DNA from: Nitrospiraceae bacterium
GTDB taxonomy: Bacteria; Nitrospirota; Nitrospiria; Nitrospirales; UBA2166
Length of the DNA stretch: 47,869 bases
Reading direction: 5' to 3'
Assembly: GCA_002726235.1 (NCBI GenBank)
Contig: PBSN01000003.1
Location: 1-47,869 of the forward strand
Part shown: positions 15,001-47,869 of the stretch, one piece after another
Layout of the letters: each line of letters opens with the position of its first letter
How positions within the stretch are numbered: position 1 is the stretch's first letter
Position numbers: made by a program

Positions 15001-18000
15001 AGGTGGCATCTGCACTAAGGGTAAAAAAAGGGGATTGGATACGACATGCTCCCATTCCTTCTTCAAAACGACACATGCTTCATTCATCAACGGGAGTGAA
15101 GTGATGTCACATCTGTGCCATGTCATCGCGAACCACTGGGTTGCAGGGATTGGAAAAGAGTTTCTCTCGGTGAACCCTGCTTCGGGTGAAAAGATGTGGG
15201 AGGGAACAGCTGCAACGAAGGTCGAAGTTGAGCAGGCAGTGCAGGCAGCTCGAAAGGCAACGGTTTCGTGGGCCGCGATCAAGGTTCACGAACGGATGGC
15301 ATATCTTGAGACGTTCCGCGACAAACTGTCTGAACGAAAGGAACACTTCGTTCACGTTATATCACAGGACACTGGCAAGCCATTATGGGAATCTCGAACA
15401 GAAGTCGAAGCAATGGTGACAAAGATTGCACTATCAATACAGGCCTATGAGGAGTTCAGTCTTTCTTCTCGAAACGATTCTGCACAAGCGCGAGCATCGG
15501 TTCGACGAAAACCTCACGGAGTCGTCGCAGTACTCGGCCCATTCAACCTCCCTGGCCACCTTCCAAATGCTCATATGGTGCCCGCCTTGATTGCCGGTAA
15601 TACCGTTGTTTTCAAACCGAGCGAGTTGACGCCAGCAGTGGGGCGAGAGTTGGCAAAGCTGTGGCTCACCGCCGATCTTCCGGCAGGAGTTTTCAACATG
15701 GTTCAGGGGGGTGCCGAAACGGGCCGCTACCTGATCGAGCATCTCGGTATCAATGGAGTGTTCTTCACAGGAGGATATGACGCAGGAAGGTCCATCCATC
15801 TTGCACTTGCAGGTTCTCCAGAGAAGATTGTTGCCTTGGAGATGGGTGGGAACAATCCACTTGCTATTGCGAATGTGGATGATGTCGATGCTGCTGCCTA
15901 TTGGACAATTCAGTCGGCCTTTATCACATCAGGACAGCGTTGCACCTGTGCACGTCGCCTCATCGTCCTTGAGAACGAGAAAAGTGATCGATTTCTTGAC
16001 TGTCTCATTGGCATGATGAAAGGGATACGTATCGGTCCCTACACCACTGATCCGGAACCATTTATGGGACCGGTGATCTCCACGTGTGCAGCGGACAGAC
16101 TGCTGGGTGCACAGGANAGCTTATGCAAGCAAGGTGGGGTCTGTCTTGTCGAGATGAACCGTATGGATGGTGGCGCAATGCTGGTGCCCGGTCTGATCGA
16201 CATGACGTATGCGAAGCAACGATCGGATGATGAGTTATTTGGACCCCTCTTGCAGGTAGTTCGCGTACAGACATTTGAGCAACTTATCGCGGAGGCAAAT
16301 GAGACAGCTTACGGGTTGGCGGCAGGGATCTTCTCCGACGAACCAGCAATGTATGAGAAGTTCTATTGTGGCGTGCGTACTGGCATCGTGAATTGGAACT
16401 ATCCATTAACCGGCGCCAGTGGACGGATGCCCTTCGGAGGGATTGGGCGAAGTGGAAATTATCGACCGAGCGGGTACTATGCTGCCCAATACTGTTCCTA
16501 TCCTATCGCTTCTCTTGAACAACACCGGCTGGCGATGCCGAAAAACTTAACCCCTGGAATCTCATTGTGAATATAGCCGCGTGGGAGGTGAATTTTGACG
16601 GGCTTTCCGGGCCGACTCATTCCTACGGAGGCCTTTCGTATGGGAATATTGCATCCATGAAGAATCGACTCAGCGCCTCAAATCCCAAAGCGGCCGCTCT
16701 TCAGGGTTTAAAAAAAATGAAGCTACTCCATGATTTCGGTATTAAGCAGGGCATTCTGCCTCCGCATGAACGGCCTGATTTTAACATGCTAAGACGGTTA
16801 GGATTTGCTGGCACCGAGGCGGAAATATTGGAGAAATCCAGCCGAGCAGATATGCAACTTCTTCTCGCATGTTTTAGTTCATCGGGGATGTGGGCTGCCA
16901 ATGCAGCCACGGTGTCACCGAGTTCGGACACTCGTGATGGACGGGTCCATTTCACCCCTGCAAACCTGGTCAGTGAGTTTCACCGGTCCATTGAAGCGCC
17001 CTTCACTGGACGTGTGTTAAGGAGGATTTTCCACGACGACAGACATTTTTCTCACCACGCGCCAATTCCAGGGAGCCTTTGTTTTTCGGACGAAGGTAGC
17101 GCAAACCATCTGCGCCTTTGTCGATTGTACAATGAACCAGGGCTTGAGATATTCGTCTATGGCCGTGAAGCCTTAAGTTTGGGAGATAGATATCCGACCG
17201 CGTATCCAGCTCGTCAGACAAGAGAAGCATCAATGGCCGTAAAACGCCTGCACGAATTGCGTGATGATGCCACCCTTGTCACTCAACAGAATCCTGTGGC
17301 GATCGACCAAGGGGTCTTTCATAATGATGTCATTTGCGTTGGGGATCGGAATTTGCTGTGGTATCACGCGGATGCGTTTTTAGATGGCCCAGGCACAATT
17401 TCTAGTATCCGGAGGATATGTGCTGAACACTACGACATCGAGCTGAATGCTATTAAAATTACAGACCGACAACTGCCGATCGATCAAGCCGTCCAATCCT
17501 ATATCTTTAACAGCCAACTGGTGACGCTACCTGATCAGTCGCAATATCTCATCGCGCCCTCTCGGTGTTGCGAGATTGCCTCAGCTCGGGCATGTATTAA
17601 TGCGCTTGTGGATGATAGTGGAATTCAGCATGTGTGCTATGTTGATCTCGAACAGAGCATGCTCAATGGCGGTGGGCCTGCCTGCCTACGGCTTCGCGTT
17701 GTCCTGACGGATGAGGAACTGGCTCATGTGCATGAGAATGTGATACTGACCGAATTGCGCTATGAGTGTTTGGTGGGTTGGGTCAGCCGGAATTTTCGTG
17801 ATCGTCTCCACATTGACGACCTTGCAGACCCACTTTTTTTGACGGAATGCCAGAAAACATTGGATGAACTAACTGCGATTTTGGACCTTGGTTCACTATA
17901 CGAGTTTCAACGGTAAAGGGTGGCACAGGAATGAGTGATGAATATTCATTACGCAATGTCACTGGCGTGTGAGTTGCTACAACCATGAACGAACTGGAAT

Positions 18001-45000: not shown

Positions 45001-47869
45001 ACCGTTGAAATCTCGAAAGCGGTTGAGCATGGGAGCAGCGATGTGGTGGTCGCGTCGACTGGTAACATGGGTGCGTCGATTGCAGCATACACCGCTCTGG
45101 CAATGGTGAAAGCAAAAATTTACGTCCCAAGGAGACTTACCGCAAGTGCGAAGATACGACAGATGAAAGGCTATGGGGCAACAGTCAGCTTAGTCAATGG
45201 GGACTATACTCAAGCGATGAAACAGGCAGTTTCAGATTTTGAACGCAAGGGGTTGCACCTTCTTGGAGATTATCCTTATCGCGGGGAAGGTGAAAAAACG
45301 GTAGGCTATGAGATTGTGGATCAGTGTGACGGGAGAGTGTCTCACATCATTGCCCCTATCGGCAATGGCACTTTACTCGCCGGCATCTGGAAGGGTATCA
45401 AGGACTTGGAAAAGGGGGGGCTTATTACTGAAAGGCCTCGACTAGTCGGAGTCCAGGCTTCCGGTTGTCAGCCGGTAGCACGTGCTTTTCTGAGTGACCG
45501 TGAGACTATTATGCCCGTAGTTCCGAGGACCAAGGCGAGTGCAATTGCATGTGGAAACCCTCTCGACGGCCGCAAAGCATTAAAGGCAATACGCGAATCT
45601 GACGGGATGATCCAAGTCGTGAGTGATGCGGAATTGGTAAAGGCTAGGAAATTATTAGCTCAGGAAGAAGGCATCTATGCGGAGTTAGCTGGTGCTGCCC
45701 CGCTTGCTGGACTGCTCAAACTTCTATCAACCTTGAACGCGGGTGCTTGTGTCGTGTTGGTGATCAGTGGAACTGGCCTGAAAGATTGAGGAAGGAGACA
45801 GTGGTGATTTCTGGCATCCTCGCAAACACAGGATGTGCGATTATCCTATCAGTTGGATTGGGTCACGATGTTCAGTAATGTTATGTGGATCAACGTCATG
45901 CTAGCGCTTAGTCAGCGATGCTTGCGATAGGATGGCAGACCACCGCATTCGACCACTCTGCCACCTCCCCAATACTTTGATTTATAATGGCTCTAATCGA
46001 TTTTAGGGATAGGCGGTTCCCAATACTTACTATAGCTCTATCCAATATATTGTTGATTTACAAAGGTTCTTATGTCACGTCAGGAGTATTTACAGACCGT
46101 CGGGTTTGCTGTCTCGCAGTGACTGCCGTAGCGAGGAATGTCGGTACCATTTTTGTCAGAGATCTCCTCAGCCACTTCAAAATCGTCGTTGAGTAGAAGA
46201 TTGGGATCGATTGATATCTCATAGCTGTGCCTGTGAATGGCGTACACTCATAGGAAGATAAGGACGGGCTCGTTCACCTTCATAGATTTGATCTGGGCGA
46301 AACAGCCGGTTATCTTGGAATTGTTCAAAGCAATGCGCAAGCCAGCCAGCGACACGCGCTATGGCGAAGACCGGGGTGAAACAATCAGGCGCAATGCCCA
46401 TAGCACGATATACCAAGCCTGAATATAAATCTAAATTGGCAGACACGCCTTTATGGCTGATCAATTGATCCATGACCCGTTCTACTTCTTGTGCGATCTC
46501 GAACAAGTGAGATTGACCAGTGTGTTCGCATACCTGTTTTGCGTGTCGTTGTAAGATCATTGCACGTGTATCTTTCACCTTATAAATGCGATGTCCGAAT
46601 CCCATAATCCGCTTTTTGGCCGCAAGCTTTTGCTCGATATATGACTGTACCCTGTCTACTGATTCGATCTCTTCCAACATTTTGATGGCCTGCTCATTTG
46701 CGCCCCCATGCAACGAGCCTTTCAGCGTCCCAATGGCTGAAGAAATTACGGAATAAGCATCTGAGAGGGTTGAGGCCGTCACGAGGCCACTAAAGGTTGA
46801 TGCGTTCATGGTGTGTTCCGCGTGGAGGATCAGCGACACATCCAAGATCCGAGCCAGTGATGGATCTGGAACGGTCCCAAACAGCATGTAGAAGAAATTC
46901 TCTGCGTGTGTCAAGTCATCGCGTGGCTGGATTTGTTCGTTGCCGTGCCGAAGCCTCGCATAGGTGGCTACGATTGTTGGAAGCTTGGCAATTAAGCGGA
47001 CAGCTGCCCAGTAGTTGGCCTCTGCATCCTGTACATTTGGCTGTGGATAAAACATCCCAAGAGCGGCCACTGTGGCTTGTAGGGCATCCATTGGATGACC
47101 ATATTCGGGGAGGCATTTGATCAGATCGGTGATCCGATACTTAATCCTGCGGTGATGCGACAAATCGCTATTGAAGGCATCCAGTTCCTTCTGACTGGGA
47201 AGTCGGTTATAGAGTAAGAGGTATGTGGTCTCAGGGAAGGTACTATGTTCTGCTAGTTCCTCAATGCAAATCCCTCGATATTCGAGAATGCCCTTTTGAC
47301 CGTCGACAAAGCTGATTTTCGACCGTGCAGCTGGAACTCCGGCTAATCCTGGGAAAAAGTCATGCATGGCAGTACCGCTCTGCCTCCCTATGGCATGGTG
47401 CACTTTATGTGGTGCGCATCTTAGGCGAACATGCTGCTTTTACTCATCAACAGCGTCCTTAACCCTTCACTCCGTAAATAGATTGGGAAGCAATCGCCGT
47501 ACCAGTAACAATCGCATCTTAATGAGCGTTTTTCCTCTGTGATCGAATCGATGGCACGACCAATCAAACGAATGACGATATTTCGTGTGTGATATCGAGC
47601 AATGTTTTGGAGGGGAAAGGAAAGATGGGTGGAGCGCATGCCCTCCTGGCACTGCGCATACTCTCGCACCATAATTTTTTCTTGCCAGGAGATGTGGCAC
47701 GAAGCTTGCGTTTCAAGAGAGGAGAGCAGGTTGCGTTAATTGCATGAGGGAGGTCATTGATGATGTCCCGAAGGAATTTCCATAGTGCTATGAAAGGAAT
47801 ATGTGGAGGGGTGTTTGCCATCATCGCTCTCATCGCGTTCGTCGATAGCGCGTATGGTGGGGGAGGGTT

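Follow-up and report, generated by a model that had tools for sequence, protein, structure and literature searches.

The marine non-nitrifying Nitrospirales genome studied here (G000) carries a real 41-kb catabolic gene block between astB and the CBS, citrate synthase and putA genes. The block is probably an old resident of the lineage, which was present in the common ancestor of G000 and its closest genus genome, G001, and was deleted in G001.

Extent and Assembly of the Block

The window, that is, the whole stretch of 47,869 nt analysed (C3:1-47,869), holds the left arm, and the complete block spans C3:17,951-47,869 and C17:1-~11,312. C3 ends with the same 99 nt that open C17. The joint is also crossed by L146, a metagenome contig of independent origin that matches C3:46541-47869 and C17:1-1301 with 99.8-99.9% identity, so the two contigs abut without a gap. 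The survey's finding had put the size at 41 kb or more with the middle missing. The size holds at 41,132 nt, but the overlap and L146 leave no missing middle, and the gene count of about 37 has to be lowered to 32-33 ORFs. Both borders lie inside contigs with collinear core flanks, as had been claimed. In G001:C36 (G001 was named G012 in the survey), the matches to C3:12278-17950 (84%) and to C17:11603-24838 (76-86%) are separated by a spacer of 227 bp. The astB orthologue of G001 is 82% identical at the amino acid level, and the DNA match at the left border stops at 17950.

An assembly or binning error that joined in DNA of another organism is scarcely credible. Such an error might be suspected from the 27 contigs of the assembly, from a block GC at the top of the genome's range, and from the 380-nt segment at the C3/C17 joint, which is preceded by two different left flanks in the population (the first 92 nt of the segment recur at the end of contig C6, behind a tRNA-Leu). 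It is opposed by the collinear borders, the bridging contig L146 and a block relic at the orthologous site in G001. Moreover, positions 27900-47869 were covered at ≥99% identity in four of the four sequencing runs examined, from three studies (two of these runs are libraries of one vent metatranscriptome sample), and these four runs showed no alternative joints. Another study supplied a contig of 17.9 kb that covers 27900-44003 and shows 8 differences there. In agreement with the survey, the borders yielded neither an integrase nor a tRNA nor a repeat: the window and C17:1-20000 held no tRNA, the ORFs scanned with NCBIfam and Pfam held no integrase or transposase families, and the longest repeat common to both borders was 10 nt, which is not above chance length.

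Gene Content and Predicted Functions

The genes were identified by NCBIfam and Pfam profile searches, and the fatty-acid, branched-chain and propionate gene content described in the survey was borne out. The features of C3 are shown in Table 1.

Table 1. Features of the left arm and its flank (positions on C3).
Feature	Position	Strand	Basis or remark
astB	16567..17916	+	left flank, outside block; NCBIfam PRK13281 617 bits, above cut-off
Left arm of the 41.1-kb block	17951..47869	.	runs straight on into contig C17
Sigma-54 enhancer-binding protein, PAS-GAF-AAA+-HTH	17985..19883	+	Pfam Sigma54_activat 231.7 bits, GAF, PAS_7, HTH_8
Inverted-repeat left arm, 58 nt	20135..20192	.	97% complementary to 20933-20990; inverted copy of E1-alpha codons
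Sigma-54-type -24/-12 motif	20407..20422	+	upstream of 95-aa ORF and BCKDH operon
95-aa ORF, weak STAS-like match	20505..20792	+	Pfam STAS_2 22.1 bits, below 29.2 cut-off
BCKDH-type E1-alpha, E1-beta, E2	20820-21899, 21896-22900, 22901-24109	+	NCBIfam PDH-E1 and E2 families
Acetyl-CoA acetyltransferase-type thiolase	24091-25293	+	TIGR01930 435.6 bits, above cut-off
3-Hydroxybutyryl-CoA dehydrogenase type	25314-26225	+	PRK05808
Acyl-CoA dehydrogenase 1	26271-27422	+	acyl-CoA dehydrogenase families (NCBIfam)
B12 acyl-CoA mutase large subunit	27422..29017	+	TIGR00641 726 bits; isobutyryl-CoA-mutase-like residues
Metallo-beta-lactamase (MBL)-fold hydrolase	29014..29856	+	between the two mutase subunits; Pfam Lactamase_B
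Mutase B12-binding small subunit	29853..30254	+	TIGR00640 157 bits, above cut-off
SCP-x-type thiolase	30251-31534	+	PRK06365 664 bits
DUF35/OB-fold partner of SCP-x-type thiolase	31531-32010	+	Pfam OB_ChsH2_C, zf-ChsH2
MeaB-like mutase-associated GTPase	31982..32746	+	TIGR00750 260 bits, above cut-off
Acyl-CoA dehydrogenase 2	32743..33897	+	acyl-CoA dehydrogenase families (NCBIfam)
Two overlapping ORFs, 200 and 170 aa	34027..35110	-	no Pfam match above cut-off
ETF alpha, ETF beta	35269-36267, 36294-37097	-	NCBIfam ETF families
Glu/Leu/Phe/Val (ELFV)-family amino-acid dehydrogenase, 371 aa	37115..38230	-	Pfam ELFV_dehydrog + N domain
ETF:quinone oxidoreductase (ETF-QO)	38354..40081	-	Pfam Fer4_ETF_QO, ETFQO_UQ-bd
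Sigma-54-type motif	40094..40109	-	upstream of etfQO
Sigma-54-type motif	40406..40421	+	upstream of prpD-like gene
MmgE/PrpD-family dehydratase	40479-41885	+	Pfam MmgE_PrpD N and C domains
Methylisocitrate lyase PrpB	41882-42790	+	TIGR02317 384.9 bits, above cut-off
AMP-forming acyl-CoA ligase	42907..44652	+	PRK06187 339 bits, below cut-off
ThrC-like PLP-dependent enzyme	44662..45789	+	Pfam PALP; TIGR00260 202 bits, above cut-off
Citrate synthase II/2-methylcitrate synthase family (CS2)	46219..47403	-	PRK14036 573, TIGR01800 463.6 bits, above cut-offs
Sigma-54-type motif	47489..47504	-	upstream of CS2
Segment at C3/C17 joint, 380 nt	47490..47869	.	two left flanks in population

In PDB alignments, the mutase large subunit differed from MCM in having Phe for the MCM Tyr and Gln for the MCM Arg. 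The ELFV-family dehydrogenase matched glutamate dehydrogenases in the PDB with E 5e-54 and leucine dehydrogenase, over its full length, with E 9e-40. The 200- and 170-aa ORFs probably represent a single gene that a frameshift has broken in two. The contigs of runs X6 and X9 are one base short at 34600, where the two ORFs overlap, and a paralogue of these ORFs lies on C8. At the 58-nt inverted repeat, a minus-strand ORF encodes the same peptide as E1-alpha. The right arm and the end of its last gene (C17:1-11524) encode a DegP-like protease, malic enzyme, an AMP-binding protein, a thiolase, FadB, a VLCAD-type dehydrogenase and the C92 hydrolase. The gene for the E3 component, lipoamide dehydrogenase, lies at another place in the genome. 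For the rTCA cycle ascribed to the lineage in the survey, a marker was also found in the genome, the ATP-citrate-lyase citrate-binding domain.

Judged from these families, the ELFV-family dehydrogenase and BCKDH would convert branched-chain amino acids to acyl-CoAs, and the Phe/Gln-type mutase may interconvert isobutyryl-CoA and butyryl-CoA, which would route valine carbon into ordinary beta-oxidation. Electrons from the acyl-CoA dehydrogenases are expected to reach the quinone pool via ETF and ETF-QO. The PrpD-like protein, PrpB and citrate/methylcitrate synthase would handle propionyl-CoA, and FadB, thiolase and VLCAD would handle longer fatty acids.

A Decayed Remnant of the Block in the Closest Genome

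Block DNA gave only paralogue matches in the four other genus genomes (G001-G004), and the ETF-QO, mutase, VLCAD and C92 proteins were each found in 0 of 4, so the absence of the block from these UBA2166 genomes was correctly reported in the survey. It had also placed the right junction correctly inside C17, but its statement that nothing matches up to C17:11,600 did not hold. The homology to G001 restarts at ~C17:11313, within the last gene of the block, C92, and not beyond it. An alignment with ~70% identity (E 2e-8 to 4e-8) links the 227-bp spacer of G001 to C17:~11313-11483, a segment that encodes C92 residues 216-272, including the invariant C-terminal motif of the family (12 sequences aligned). 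The G001 relic reads LFTHRDF and GDKMELSLTCDTIESR, where the G000 counterpart reads LFTPRDF and GDQTELVSTCDTIEPR. The C92 copy of G001 is decayed by stops and frameshifts, exactly at the junction. These results show that G001 is the derived, deleted state. The deletion would have run from 34 bp past astB into the 3' part of C92, and the ancestor shared by G000 and G001 would already have had the block between astB and the CBS gene. The relic proves this ancestry only for the right-end operon; for the left arm, presence in that ancestor rests on parsimony.

The C92 gene terminates a five-gene operon in the order amp519-thl2-fadB-vlcad-C92. The same operon, in the same order and with 68-78% amino acid identity, was found in G189:C4, which belongs to a different family of Nitrospirales. 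Of 330 other genomes, just 1 carries the VLCAD operon, a very rare feature in the order. The closest named outside relatives of this operon are PVC-type bacteria (62-68%), which indicates that part of the block is horizontally derived. The beta-oxidation operon is probably an older horizontal acquisition, still before the split of G000 and G001.

The survey had read the locus as a species-specific insertion. It would then have occurred after the G001 split, between astB and a pre-existing C92, and G001 would have separately lost the 5' part of C92. Although the absence from all four other genus genomes, the composition offset described below and the PVC-like relatives of the fad operon would fit, this reading was already disfavoured and is highly improbable. 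It requires two independent events with the same endpoint, 34 bp past astB. In addition, a lone native C92 beside the CBS gene is unlikely because C92 ends the fad operon in G189 as well. The signs of mobility looked for at the borders were missing, and the left-arm genes are spread over the order with UBA2166-type divergence. The survey's interpretation overall is thus partly supported.

Erosion at this locus reaches beyond the block. In G002, astB (aa 369-449), CS1 (141 nt) and egtD (130 nt) survive as relics only, full-length putA was found only in G000 and G001, and both G002 and G004 show rearrangement and erosion of the locus. Since the neighbouring catabolic genes ast, putA, CS1 and egtD are eroded too in another species of the genus, the block may be missing there as part of a wider loss of amino-acid catabolic genes. 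Relics of the block itself were found in G001 and in none of G002-G004. A quick tree of rpoB gave the topology (G004,G003,(G002,(G000,G001))), on which a block ancestral to the whole genus would need at least three separate losses. Because G000 and G001 form a sister pair nested within the genus, one gain and one loss would be cheaper. The block or its left arm could thus have been gained by the G000/G001 ancestor through transfer within the order or family, beside the fad operon, from other Nitrospirales or a UBA2166-like lineage, and later deleted in G001, while the older genus branches never had it. The missing relics in G002-G004 speak for such a transfer, but with the locus rearranged or eroded in G002 and G004 they may have gone. 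Taken with the evidence that follows, we consider this history unlikely.

Relatives of the Block across Nitrospirales

The block appears to be a mosaic of two kinds of module, and most of the left arm would derive from modules widespread in Nitrospirales, namely BCKDH, the thiolase and dehydrogenases, the split B12 mutase with the MBL-fold gene, the SCP-x thiolase, MeaB, ETF, ETF-QO and prp. Of 400 other sampled genomes, 143 had a mutase orthologue with 70-82% identity (f2, 110/260; f3, 21/115; f4, 12/21), and the best match outside Nitrospirales was at most 63% identical. ETF-QO is patchy (22 of 400 other genomes, 65-73% amino acid identity), and patchiness would also be expected from transfer. 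The gene order from E1-alpha to acs1 recurs in G010:C28 and G025:C41 (64-89% identity) and in L065-L067. At the amino acid level, E1-alpha, E1-beta and E2 were 64-85% identical to their counterparts in G010 and L065; the MBL-fold gene has the same position in G010, L065, L066 and L067 (67-70%); the SCP-x thiolase/DUF35 pair was 88-89% identical to those of G010 and G025; and the acyl-CoA ligase (68-71%) also follows the prp genes in these two genomes. Acyl-CoA dehydrogenase 2 was 75-78% identical to a gene beside etfAB/etfQO in four f2 genomes, ETF alpha and beta 64-73% to f2 and f4 genomes, and CS2 63-68% to the citrate synthase that f2 genomes carry close to their ETF genes. One f2 genome, G264, has nuoM/N, ETF genes and CBS with citrate synthase within ~31 kb, and this common neighbourhood argues against a transfer.

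In pairwise comparisons of eleven block protein families, G000 was the most divergent member in ten. Its identities to the others, compared with those among the others, were 76-80% and 81-87% for mutN, 67-70% and 74-85% for ETF-QO, 83-85% and 88-92% for E1-beta, and 69-71% and 82% for acs1. This divergence matches that of rpoB (68-71% for G000 and 78-83% between f2 and f4). The eleventh family, PrpD, does not single out G000, which was 65-69% identical to the four others, while G402 was 65-68% identical to its four partners. In the mutase tree the Nitrospirales form a clade of their own (SH-aLRT 99) with G000 as the longest tip, and in the ETF-QO tree none of the 12 f2/f4 sequences groups with G000, whose long branch lies outside them. 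The G000 copies are never nested in a sampled clade, so a transfer would call for a donor from an unsampled lineage that is no less divergent than UBA2166. In line with long residence, sister-species-level relatives were seen for the mutase (86%), VLCAD (87 and 82%) and C92 (84%), and the 86-87% relatives are carried by contigs P0122 and P0242.

Relative to the genome baseline, the block proteins stand much nearer to f4. Their median identity to G010 was ~72%, compared with 52.6% for the genome (106 reciprocal best hits, 400-kb sample). We put this down to slow-evolving enzymes, although a transfer within the order would explain it as well. The composition of the block is likewise offset: its GC3 was 0.542 compared with 0.493 in the rest of the genome (p = 3e-8), its GC 0.519 compared with 0.488, and its tetranucleotide distance was at the 96.8th percentile of 62 windows, which is atypical for its genome. 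The same cluster in G010 shows a similar upward offset, but with p = 0.07. Transfer would account for the offset, yet the GC3 of the block is close to the host level and far below that of the relatives (0.76-0.80 in G010), and all sampled relatives have 57-65% GC. Long residence with deletion in G001 remains the reading that we prefer.

Predicted Regulation by Sigma-54

The sequence TGGYAY-N5-TTGCW occurs 12 times in the genome, and four of these sites are in the block, where 0.26 were expected. Each of the four lies between genes and is directed into an operon, and rpoN is present in the genome. The block therefore looks like a sigma-54/enhancer-binding-protein regulon, in which the PAS-GAF activator and RpoN would switch on several operons with -24/-12 promoters. 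The activator had no orthologue in 400 genomes of the order (best match 43-48%, in the GAF domain only), and the strict motif was absent from the G010, G025 and L066 clusters. The block sequence is present in vent metatranscriptome libraries, and RNA-library contigs starting at 40442-40447, near the motif upstream of the prpD-like gene, faintly hint at a transcript start there.

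Extent, Continuity and Gene Content of the Block

The block, which the survey had described on two contigs as present here and missing in relatives, could be completed to its full length. The 3'-terminal 99 nt of C3, the contig of the window, were identical to the 5'-terminal 99 nt of C17, which carries the right end, and L146, a contig of 2.5 kb assembled from an independent metagenome, crossed the joint from C3:46541 to C17:1301 with 99.8-99.9% identity. The overlap and the bridge indicate that the block is complete, with 41,132 nt and 32-33 ORFs. Four other metagenome loci tried as bridges (L145, L147, L148, and L154) held only isolated citrate synthase genes without synteny. 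Three studies, with four runs between them, gave contigs that covered the stretch 27900-47869 at at least 99% identity, with no alternative joint in those runs over that stretch, and one 17.9-kb contig spanned 27900-44003. Another exact 99-nt end overlap was found between C2 and C21, and both ends of C7 matched each other and an end of C14.

The survey's gene list agreed with ORF calling and family scans, and the gene order is collected in the table. The STAS-like and cytochrome/SMBP-like matches of the small and unknown ORFs stayed below the cut-offs. The two unknown ORFs overlap at 34598-34629; base 34600 was missing in the X6 and X9 contigs, which come from vent RNA libraries, and the DNA runs X3 and X4 agreed with the window at this base. 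The two ORFs probably represent a single gene with a frameshift in this type of strain. The two citrate synthases of the genome, CS1 in the right flank and CS2 in the block, were ~67-68% identical to each other at the nucleotide level. Compared with the synthase neighbouring the ETF genes in genomes of f2, another family of the order, the block copy reached 63-68% and the flanking copy 58-62% amino acid identity. An ATP-citrate-lyase domain was present alongside the two synthases, in line with the rTCA of the UBA2166 family described in PMC12342949.

Features of the block, its flanks and related sites; block genes are listed in their order on C3 and C17
Feature	Location	Remark
Three ORFs (263, 119, and 118 aa)	C3:9452-11380	between egtD and M20 hydrolase; no NCBIfam or Pfam match
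astB	C3:16567-17916	left flank; block genes start after it
PAS-GAF-AAA+-HTH sigma-54 activator	C3	
0.9-kb spacer	C3	weak STAS-like 95-aa ORF
Inverted repeat, left arm	C3:20135-20192	
Inverted repeat, right arm	C3:20933-20990	inside E1-alpha CDS
E1a, E1b, E2	C3	BCKDH-type
Thiolase, 3-hydroxyacyl-CoA dehydrogenase, acyl-CoA dehydrogenase	C3	
Split B12 acyl-CoA mutase	C3	MBL-fold gene between its two subunits
SCP-x-type thiolase, DUF35 partner, MeaB-like GTPase, second acyl-CoA dehydrogenase	C3	
Two unknown ORFs	C3:34027-34629, 34598-35110	
ETF alpha, ETF beta, ELFV-family amino-acid dehydrogenase, ETF-QO	C3	
PrpD-like protein, PrpB, acyl-CoA ligase, ThrC-like PLP enzyme	C3	
Citrate synthase II (CS2)	C3:46219-47403	
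380-nt segment	C3:47490-47869	related to G000:C6:43435-43850
DegP-like protease, malic enzyme	C17	
AMP-binding protein-thiolase-FadB-VLCAD-C92 hydrolase	C17	fad operon
Part of C92 aligned to the G001 spacer	C17:11313-11483	
CBS gene	C17	right flank
Citrate synthase CS1	C17:12168-13313	right flank
putA	C17	right flank
E3 (lipoamide dehydrogenase)	C8:614020-615390	outside block; above cut-off
egtD relic in G002	G002:C190:8788-8915	
astB relic in G002	G002:C110:13624-13861	
CS1 relic in G002	G002:C151:3668-3808	

Absence From the Other Genomes of the Genus and a Relic in the Closest One

The reported absence from the four other genomes of the genus (G001-G004) was confirmed. Contig C36 of G001, the closest one, was collinear with both flanks (76-86% nucleotide identity), and a 227-bp spacer replaced the block. 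Block DNA gave only paralogue matches in the four genomes, and the ETF-QO, mutase, VLCAD, and C92 proteins were each found in none of them. A 0.3-kb genus match at 34057-34387 was rejected as a relic, since it is paralogous to a C8 core gene.

The G001 spacer aligned over ~170 nt with ~70% identity to a part of C92, the last gene of the block. In an alignment of 12 family members, this part encodes the invariant C-terminal motif of the C92 family. The G001 copy retained recognisable pieces of the motif and a lineage-specific tail, interrupted by stops and frameshifts, and no intact C92 was found in G001-G004. Contig C4 of G189, a genome from another family of the order, carries the same five fad operon genes in the same order with 68-78% amino acid identity, so that C92 is not a stray native gene. 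Given this operon and the relic in G001, the common ancestor of G001 and G000, the genome studied here, therefore had at least the fad operon beside the CBS gene. A single deletion, reaching from 34 bp after astB into C92, explains the state of G001. The survey's reading of an inserted island was thus not supported, since what is left of C92, with its frameshifts, still stands in the "empty" site of G001, and by this alignment an empty site is not the ancestral state. Instead, the region looks like one that was retained here and deleted in relatives, with a mosaic history.

Among the other genomes, G002 had only relics of astB, CS1, and egtD in a rearranged locus, and G004 (98% complete) had none of ast, CBS-CS1, and putA. 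A full-length putA was present in G000 and G001 only. Within the genus, amino-acid catabolism was thus lost in a nested pattern. The prfC/egtD side of G002 and G004 was joined to DNA that in G000 sits on C4 (~112-128 kb).

Origin of the Left Arm and of the fad Operon

The order of the left-arm genes (E1a to MeaB, ETF, ETF-QO, prpD, prpB to ligase) was the same in two genomes of the family f4, with 64-89% identity, and most of it was also found in three Nitrospiraceae/Nitrospira MAGs. Of the 400 further genomes sampled from the order, 143 had an orthologue of the mutase, and each of the three other families was represented among them, while the best match outside the order was at most 63% identical. 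The mutase tree contained a well-supported Nitrospirales-only clade with G000 as its longest tip, and the ETF-QO tree placed G000 in the same way. G000 was the most divergent member in 10 of the 11 block protein families compared, and likewise in rpoB; the exception was PrpD, in which G402, another genome of the order, was as divergent. This fits the published long branch of UBA2166 (PMC12342949). Relatives from metagenomes at the level of sister species had 86% identity in the mutase, 87 and 82% in VLCAD, and 84% in C92. By these matches and trees, the left-arm genes do not appear foreign to the host clade.

The cluster of nitrite-oxidising Nitrospirales (f4 and f2; G010:C28 and locus L065, "Nitrospiraceae bacterium") shares with the block the modules E1a-E1b-E2-thl-hbd-(acad)-mutN-mbl-mutB12-(scpx-duf35)-meaB and etfAB-etfQO / prpD-prpB-CS-acs, with amino acid identities of 60-89%, and a related protein named from Nitrospira sp. 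Nam80 was among the matches. G000 differs in adding the sigma-54 activator, the -24/-12 motifs, the second acyl-CoA dehydrogenase, the ELFV dehydrogenase, the ThrC-like enzyme, malic enzyme, DegP, and the fad operon. Conversely, G010 has a prpC-type synthase between prpB and acs which is missing from the G000 block, and the mutase module of f2 genomes is located far from their ETF module (at a distance of 267 kb in G220). In the f2 genome G264, nuoM/N, the ETF genes, and CBS with citrate synthase lie within ~31 kb, much as at this locus.

Among 330 other genomes of the order, a single one had the fad operon, searched by VLCAD, the remaining 40 matches being paralogues of 37-43%. The nearest named relatives outside the order (62-68%) belonged to Lentisphaerae, Phycisphaerales, and Verrucomicrobia, which are PVC-type bacteria. 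Unlike the left arm, the fad operon genes are thus, as far as protein similarity tells, foreign to the host clade.

The block could also have been gained by the common ancestor of G000 and G001 from an unsampled, equally divergent lineage. In a quick rpoB tree of the genus, in which the G010 row was disregarded and beside which rpoB identities were computed separately, G000 and G001 were sisters nested inside the genus, so that vertical descent of the block in the whole genus requires at least three losses. The GC3 was 0.542 in the block and 0.493 elsewhere in the genome (p = 3e-8), the tetranucleotide distance of the block was an outlier (96.8th percentile), and its proteins were much closer to f4 (median ~72%) than the genome baseline (median 52.6%, 106 reciprocal best hits). 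We give these points less weight, because the equivalent cluster of G010 was shifted upward too (GC3 0.80 vs 0.76, p = 0.07), because all sampled relatives (57-65% GC) had a far higher GC3 than the block, and because these enzymes evolve slowly, with an identity of already ~60% outside the order. We consider such a gain unlikely and prefer retention here with deletion in relatives. Raised values as in the block were also seen in the 89-kb contig C13 of G000 (GC 0.52, GC3 0.545). Two further contigs, C24 (7.3 kb, GC 0.37) and C26 (12.8 kb, GC 0.26), were far from the genome in composition and may be mis-binned or extrachromosomal.

Search for Signatures of Mobility

The survey had noticed no integrase or tRNA at the borders and had left repeats unsearched; the former held, and repeats were now sought. 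The family scan covered 47 ORFs of the window and C17, mostly of at least ~95 aa (40 by NCBIfam, 17 of these also by Pfam, and 7 by Pfam alone), and no integrase, recombinase, or transposase family was found among them. ARAGORN found no tRNA or tmRNA in the window or in C17:1-20000. Between C3:17800-18200 and C17:11150-11700, the longest exact direct match was 10 nt, which is at chance level, and there was no inverted match of at least 9 nt. The block resembles classical genomic islands, which are associated with integrases or tRNAs and bounded by direct repeats, in being a large block of one species that is missing in close relatives and in its mild compositional offset. It differs from them in lacking an integrase, tRNA, and border repeats, in the sister-genome relic that marks a deletion there, and in that most of its genes are phylogenetically native to the order. 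The block reveals neither a new kind of mobile element nor a new mechanism.

How recent exchange looks in these genomes is shown by a contrasting case. G000:C14:12086-17476 and G001:C26:1513-6943 were 97.6% identical over 5.4 kb, compared to ~84% for the core DNA of the two species, and the G001 copy follows a tRNA-Leu. This stretch is probably a recently exchanged mobile element.

Predicted Enzymes and Pathways

Family matches were obtained for all components of a BCKDH-type complex, namely E1-alpha, E1-beta, lipoyl-E2, and E3. E1a and E2 scored under the PDH/OGDH equivalog cut-offs and E1b over a subfamily cut-off, and the complex is predicted to be of BCKDH type. Known BCKDH/ETF/ETF-QO catabolic clusters of aerobic bacteria include the bkd and liu/fad regulons in Pseudomonas and Bacillus, and the Bacillus bkd operon is controlled by sigma-54 and the EBP BkdR. 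As in those clusters, E1a-E1b-E2 stand beside thiolase, hydroxyacyl-CoA dehydrogenase, and acyl-CoA dehydrogenases, electrons would pass via ETF and ETF-QO to quinone, and an amino-acid dehydrogenase stands at the entry. Unlike them, the G000 cluster has its E3 encoded elsewhere, embeds the split B12 mutase with the MBL-fold gene and the SCP-x/DUF35 pair, lacks methylcrotonyl-CoA carboxylase genes, and belongs to an ACL-bearing, NXR-lacking member of the Nitrospirales.

The large subunit, the B12-binding subunit, and the G-protein chaperone of the mutase matched TIGR00641, TIGR00640, and TIGR00750, all above the cut-offs. In PDB alignments, in which one chain is a Tyr-to-Phe mutant, the block mutase has WTMRQF and YIAQKEW in place of the ..RQY.. 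and ..MVRNT.. of human and Propionibacterium MCM, so that Phe/Gln occupy the Tyr/Arg positions of methylmalonyl-CoA mutase. The best solved relative by sequence was the 2-hydroxyisobutyryl-CoA mutase HcmA (4R3U, E 3e-156), and the block mutase has Ala in place of the specificity-determining Asp of HcmA. Phe/Gln instead of Tyr/Arg without this Asp is the signature of isobutyryl-CoA mutase, and the enzyme is a predicted isobutyryl-CoA mutase. The neighbouring genes, for a thiolase, a dehydrogenase, and an acyl-CoA dehydrogenase of the butyryl-CoA type, agree with this reading. The system resembles IcmA/IcmB with a MeaB-like chaperone (Streptomyces type; fused IcmF, PDB 4XC6) in its separate large and B12-binding subunits, MeaB-family GTPase, and Phe/Gln, and differs in that the MBL-fold gene parts the subunits and that the closest solved sequence is HcmA.

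PrpB scored 384.9 bits with TIGR02317 (cut-off 354.4), a secure assignment. The PrpD-like protein had strong MmgE/PrpD Pfam domains and was far below the cut-offs of all three PrpD equivalogs (153-200 vs 458-950 bits), and CS2 passed both TIGR01800 (2-methylcitrate synthase/citrate synthase II) and a citrate synthase equivalog; PrpD and PrpC are putative assignments at the family level only. ETF alpha, ETF beta, and ETF-QO were all present, the last with Fer4_ETF_QO (87 bits) and ETFQO_UQ-bd (84.5 bits). PDB similarity did not separate the Leu/Val and Glu types for the ELFV dehydrogenase, and neither assignment was kept.

Predicted Regulation and Possible Transcripts at Vents

The motif TGGYAY-N5-TTGCW had 4 of its 12 genome sites in the block (0.26 expected). 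All four were intergenic and co-oriented with the BCKDH, etfQO, prpD, and CS2 operons, and looser sigma-54 motif matches were located upstream of degP, of the gene for malic enzyme, and of the fad operon. Since rpoN was also found in G000 (429 bits, above cut-off), an activator with a sigma-54 interaction domain, RpoN, and -24/-12 motifs occur together, which are the sequence elements of a sigma-54 regulon. The block's own PAS-GAF activator would be the obvious partner of RpoN. The clusters of G010, G025, and L066 yielded no strict sigma-54 motif, and the regulon idea therefore does not carry over to those. Searching the N-terminal half of the activator in 400 genomes of the order returned GAF-domain paralogues only, with at most 48% identity.

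Contigs of two libraries of one vent metatranscriptome sample covered the whole 27900-47869 stretch. Some started at 40442-40447, 11-16 nt past the start site predicted for prpD, which is only a hint of a transcript start, as such contigs may derive from transcripts or from carried-over DNA.

A 58-nt inverted repeat (97% complementary) was found around the start of the BCKDH operon. Its left arm is an inverted copy of the E1-alpha codons in the right arm, 740 nt upstream, and the STAS-like ORF lies between the arms together with a sigma-54-type promoter. The repeat may have been left by an old inversion, or may be a recombination or antisense element affecting the BCKDH operon.

Possible Metabolic Meaning

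PMC12342949 describes UBA2166 as a basal, marine, NXR-lacking Nitrospirales family of unknown physiology. Its main text contained no reference to fatty acids, branched-chain compounds, methylcitrate, or beta-oxidation, and its 11 supplementary files no ETF, mutase, or acyl-CoA dehydrogenase terms. No description of a conserved Nitrospirales catabolic cluster was found there or by full-text searches on Nitrospira/Nitrospirales catabolism. At least one UBA2166 species keeps a full gene set for amino-acid and fatty-acid oxidation, and its sister species shed such genes stepwise; this is a case of metabolic streamlining that is dated and marked by relics. Many nitrite oxidisers of the Nitrospirales also seem to have a conserved catabolic cluster.

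Taken together, a possible but still rather doubtful reading is that a non-nitrifying marine Nitrospirales member with rTCA keeps one 41-kb sigma-54/PAS-GAF organotrophy regulon, transcribed at hydrothermal vents, by which it would respire branched-chain amino acids (valine via a B12 isobutyryl-CoA mutase shunt to butyryl-CoA), propionate, and long-chain fatty acids. Its core (BCKDH, split mutase with MBL-fold gene, SCP-x thiolase, ETF, and prp) would be an undescribed ancestral trait of the order, present in about one third of the sampled nitrite oxidisers. If true, facultative organotrophy would be ancestral in the Nitrospirales and would have been lost repeatedly by genome streamlining.

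Variation at the Right End of C3

In run X4, the summed contig depth was 2.3-5.6 over 44000-47490 compared to 12.8 over 27900-44003. In part of that population, the 3' end of the ligase gene, the ThrC-like gene, and CS2 may therefore have diverged at the strain level or been replaced. The low depth and the contig ends at 47489 were set aside as evidence, as de Bruijn-graph or strain effects. The 380-nt segment at the end of C3 behaves as a repeat or strain junction, with a depth of 17.7 in X4 compared to 4.5 for the CS2-side contig. The assembly showed no partner for the other side of the segment. Contig C6 ends in the first 92 nt of the segment, ~235 nt after tRNA-Leu(taa), and the C6-type left flank was seen in contigs of two other studies.
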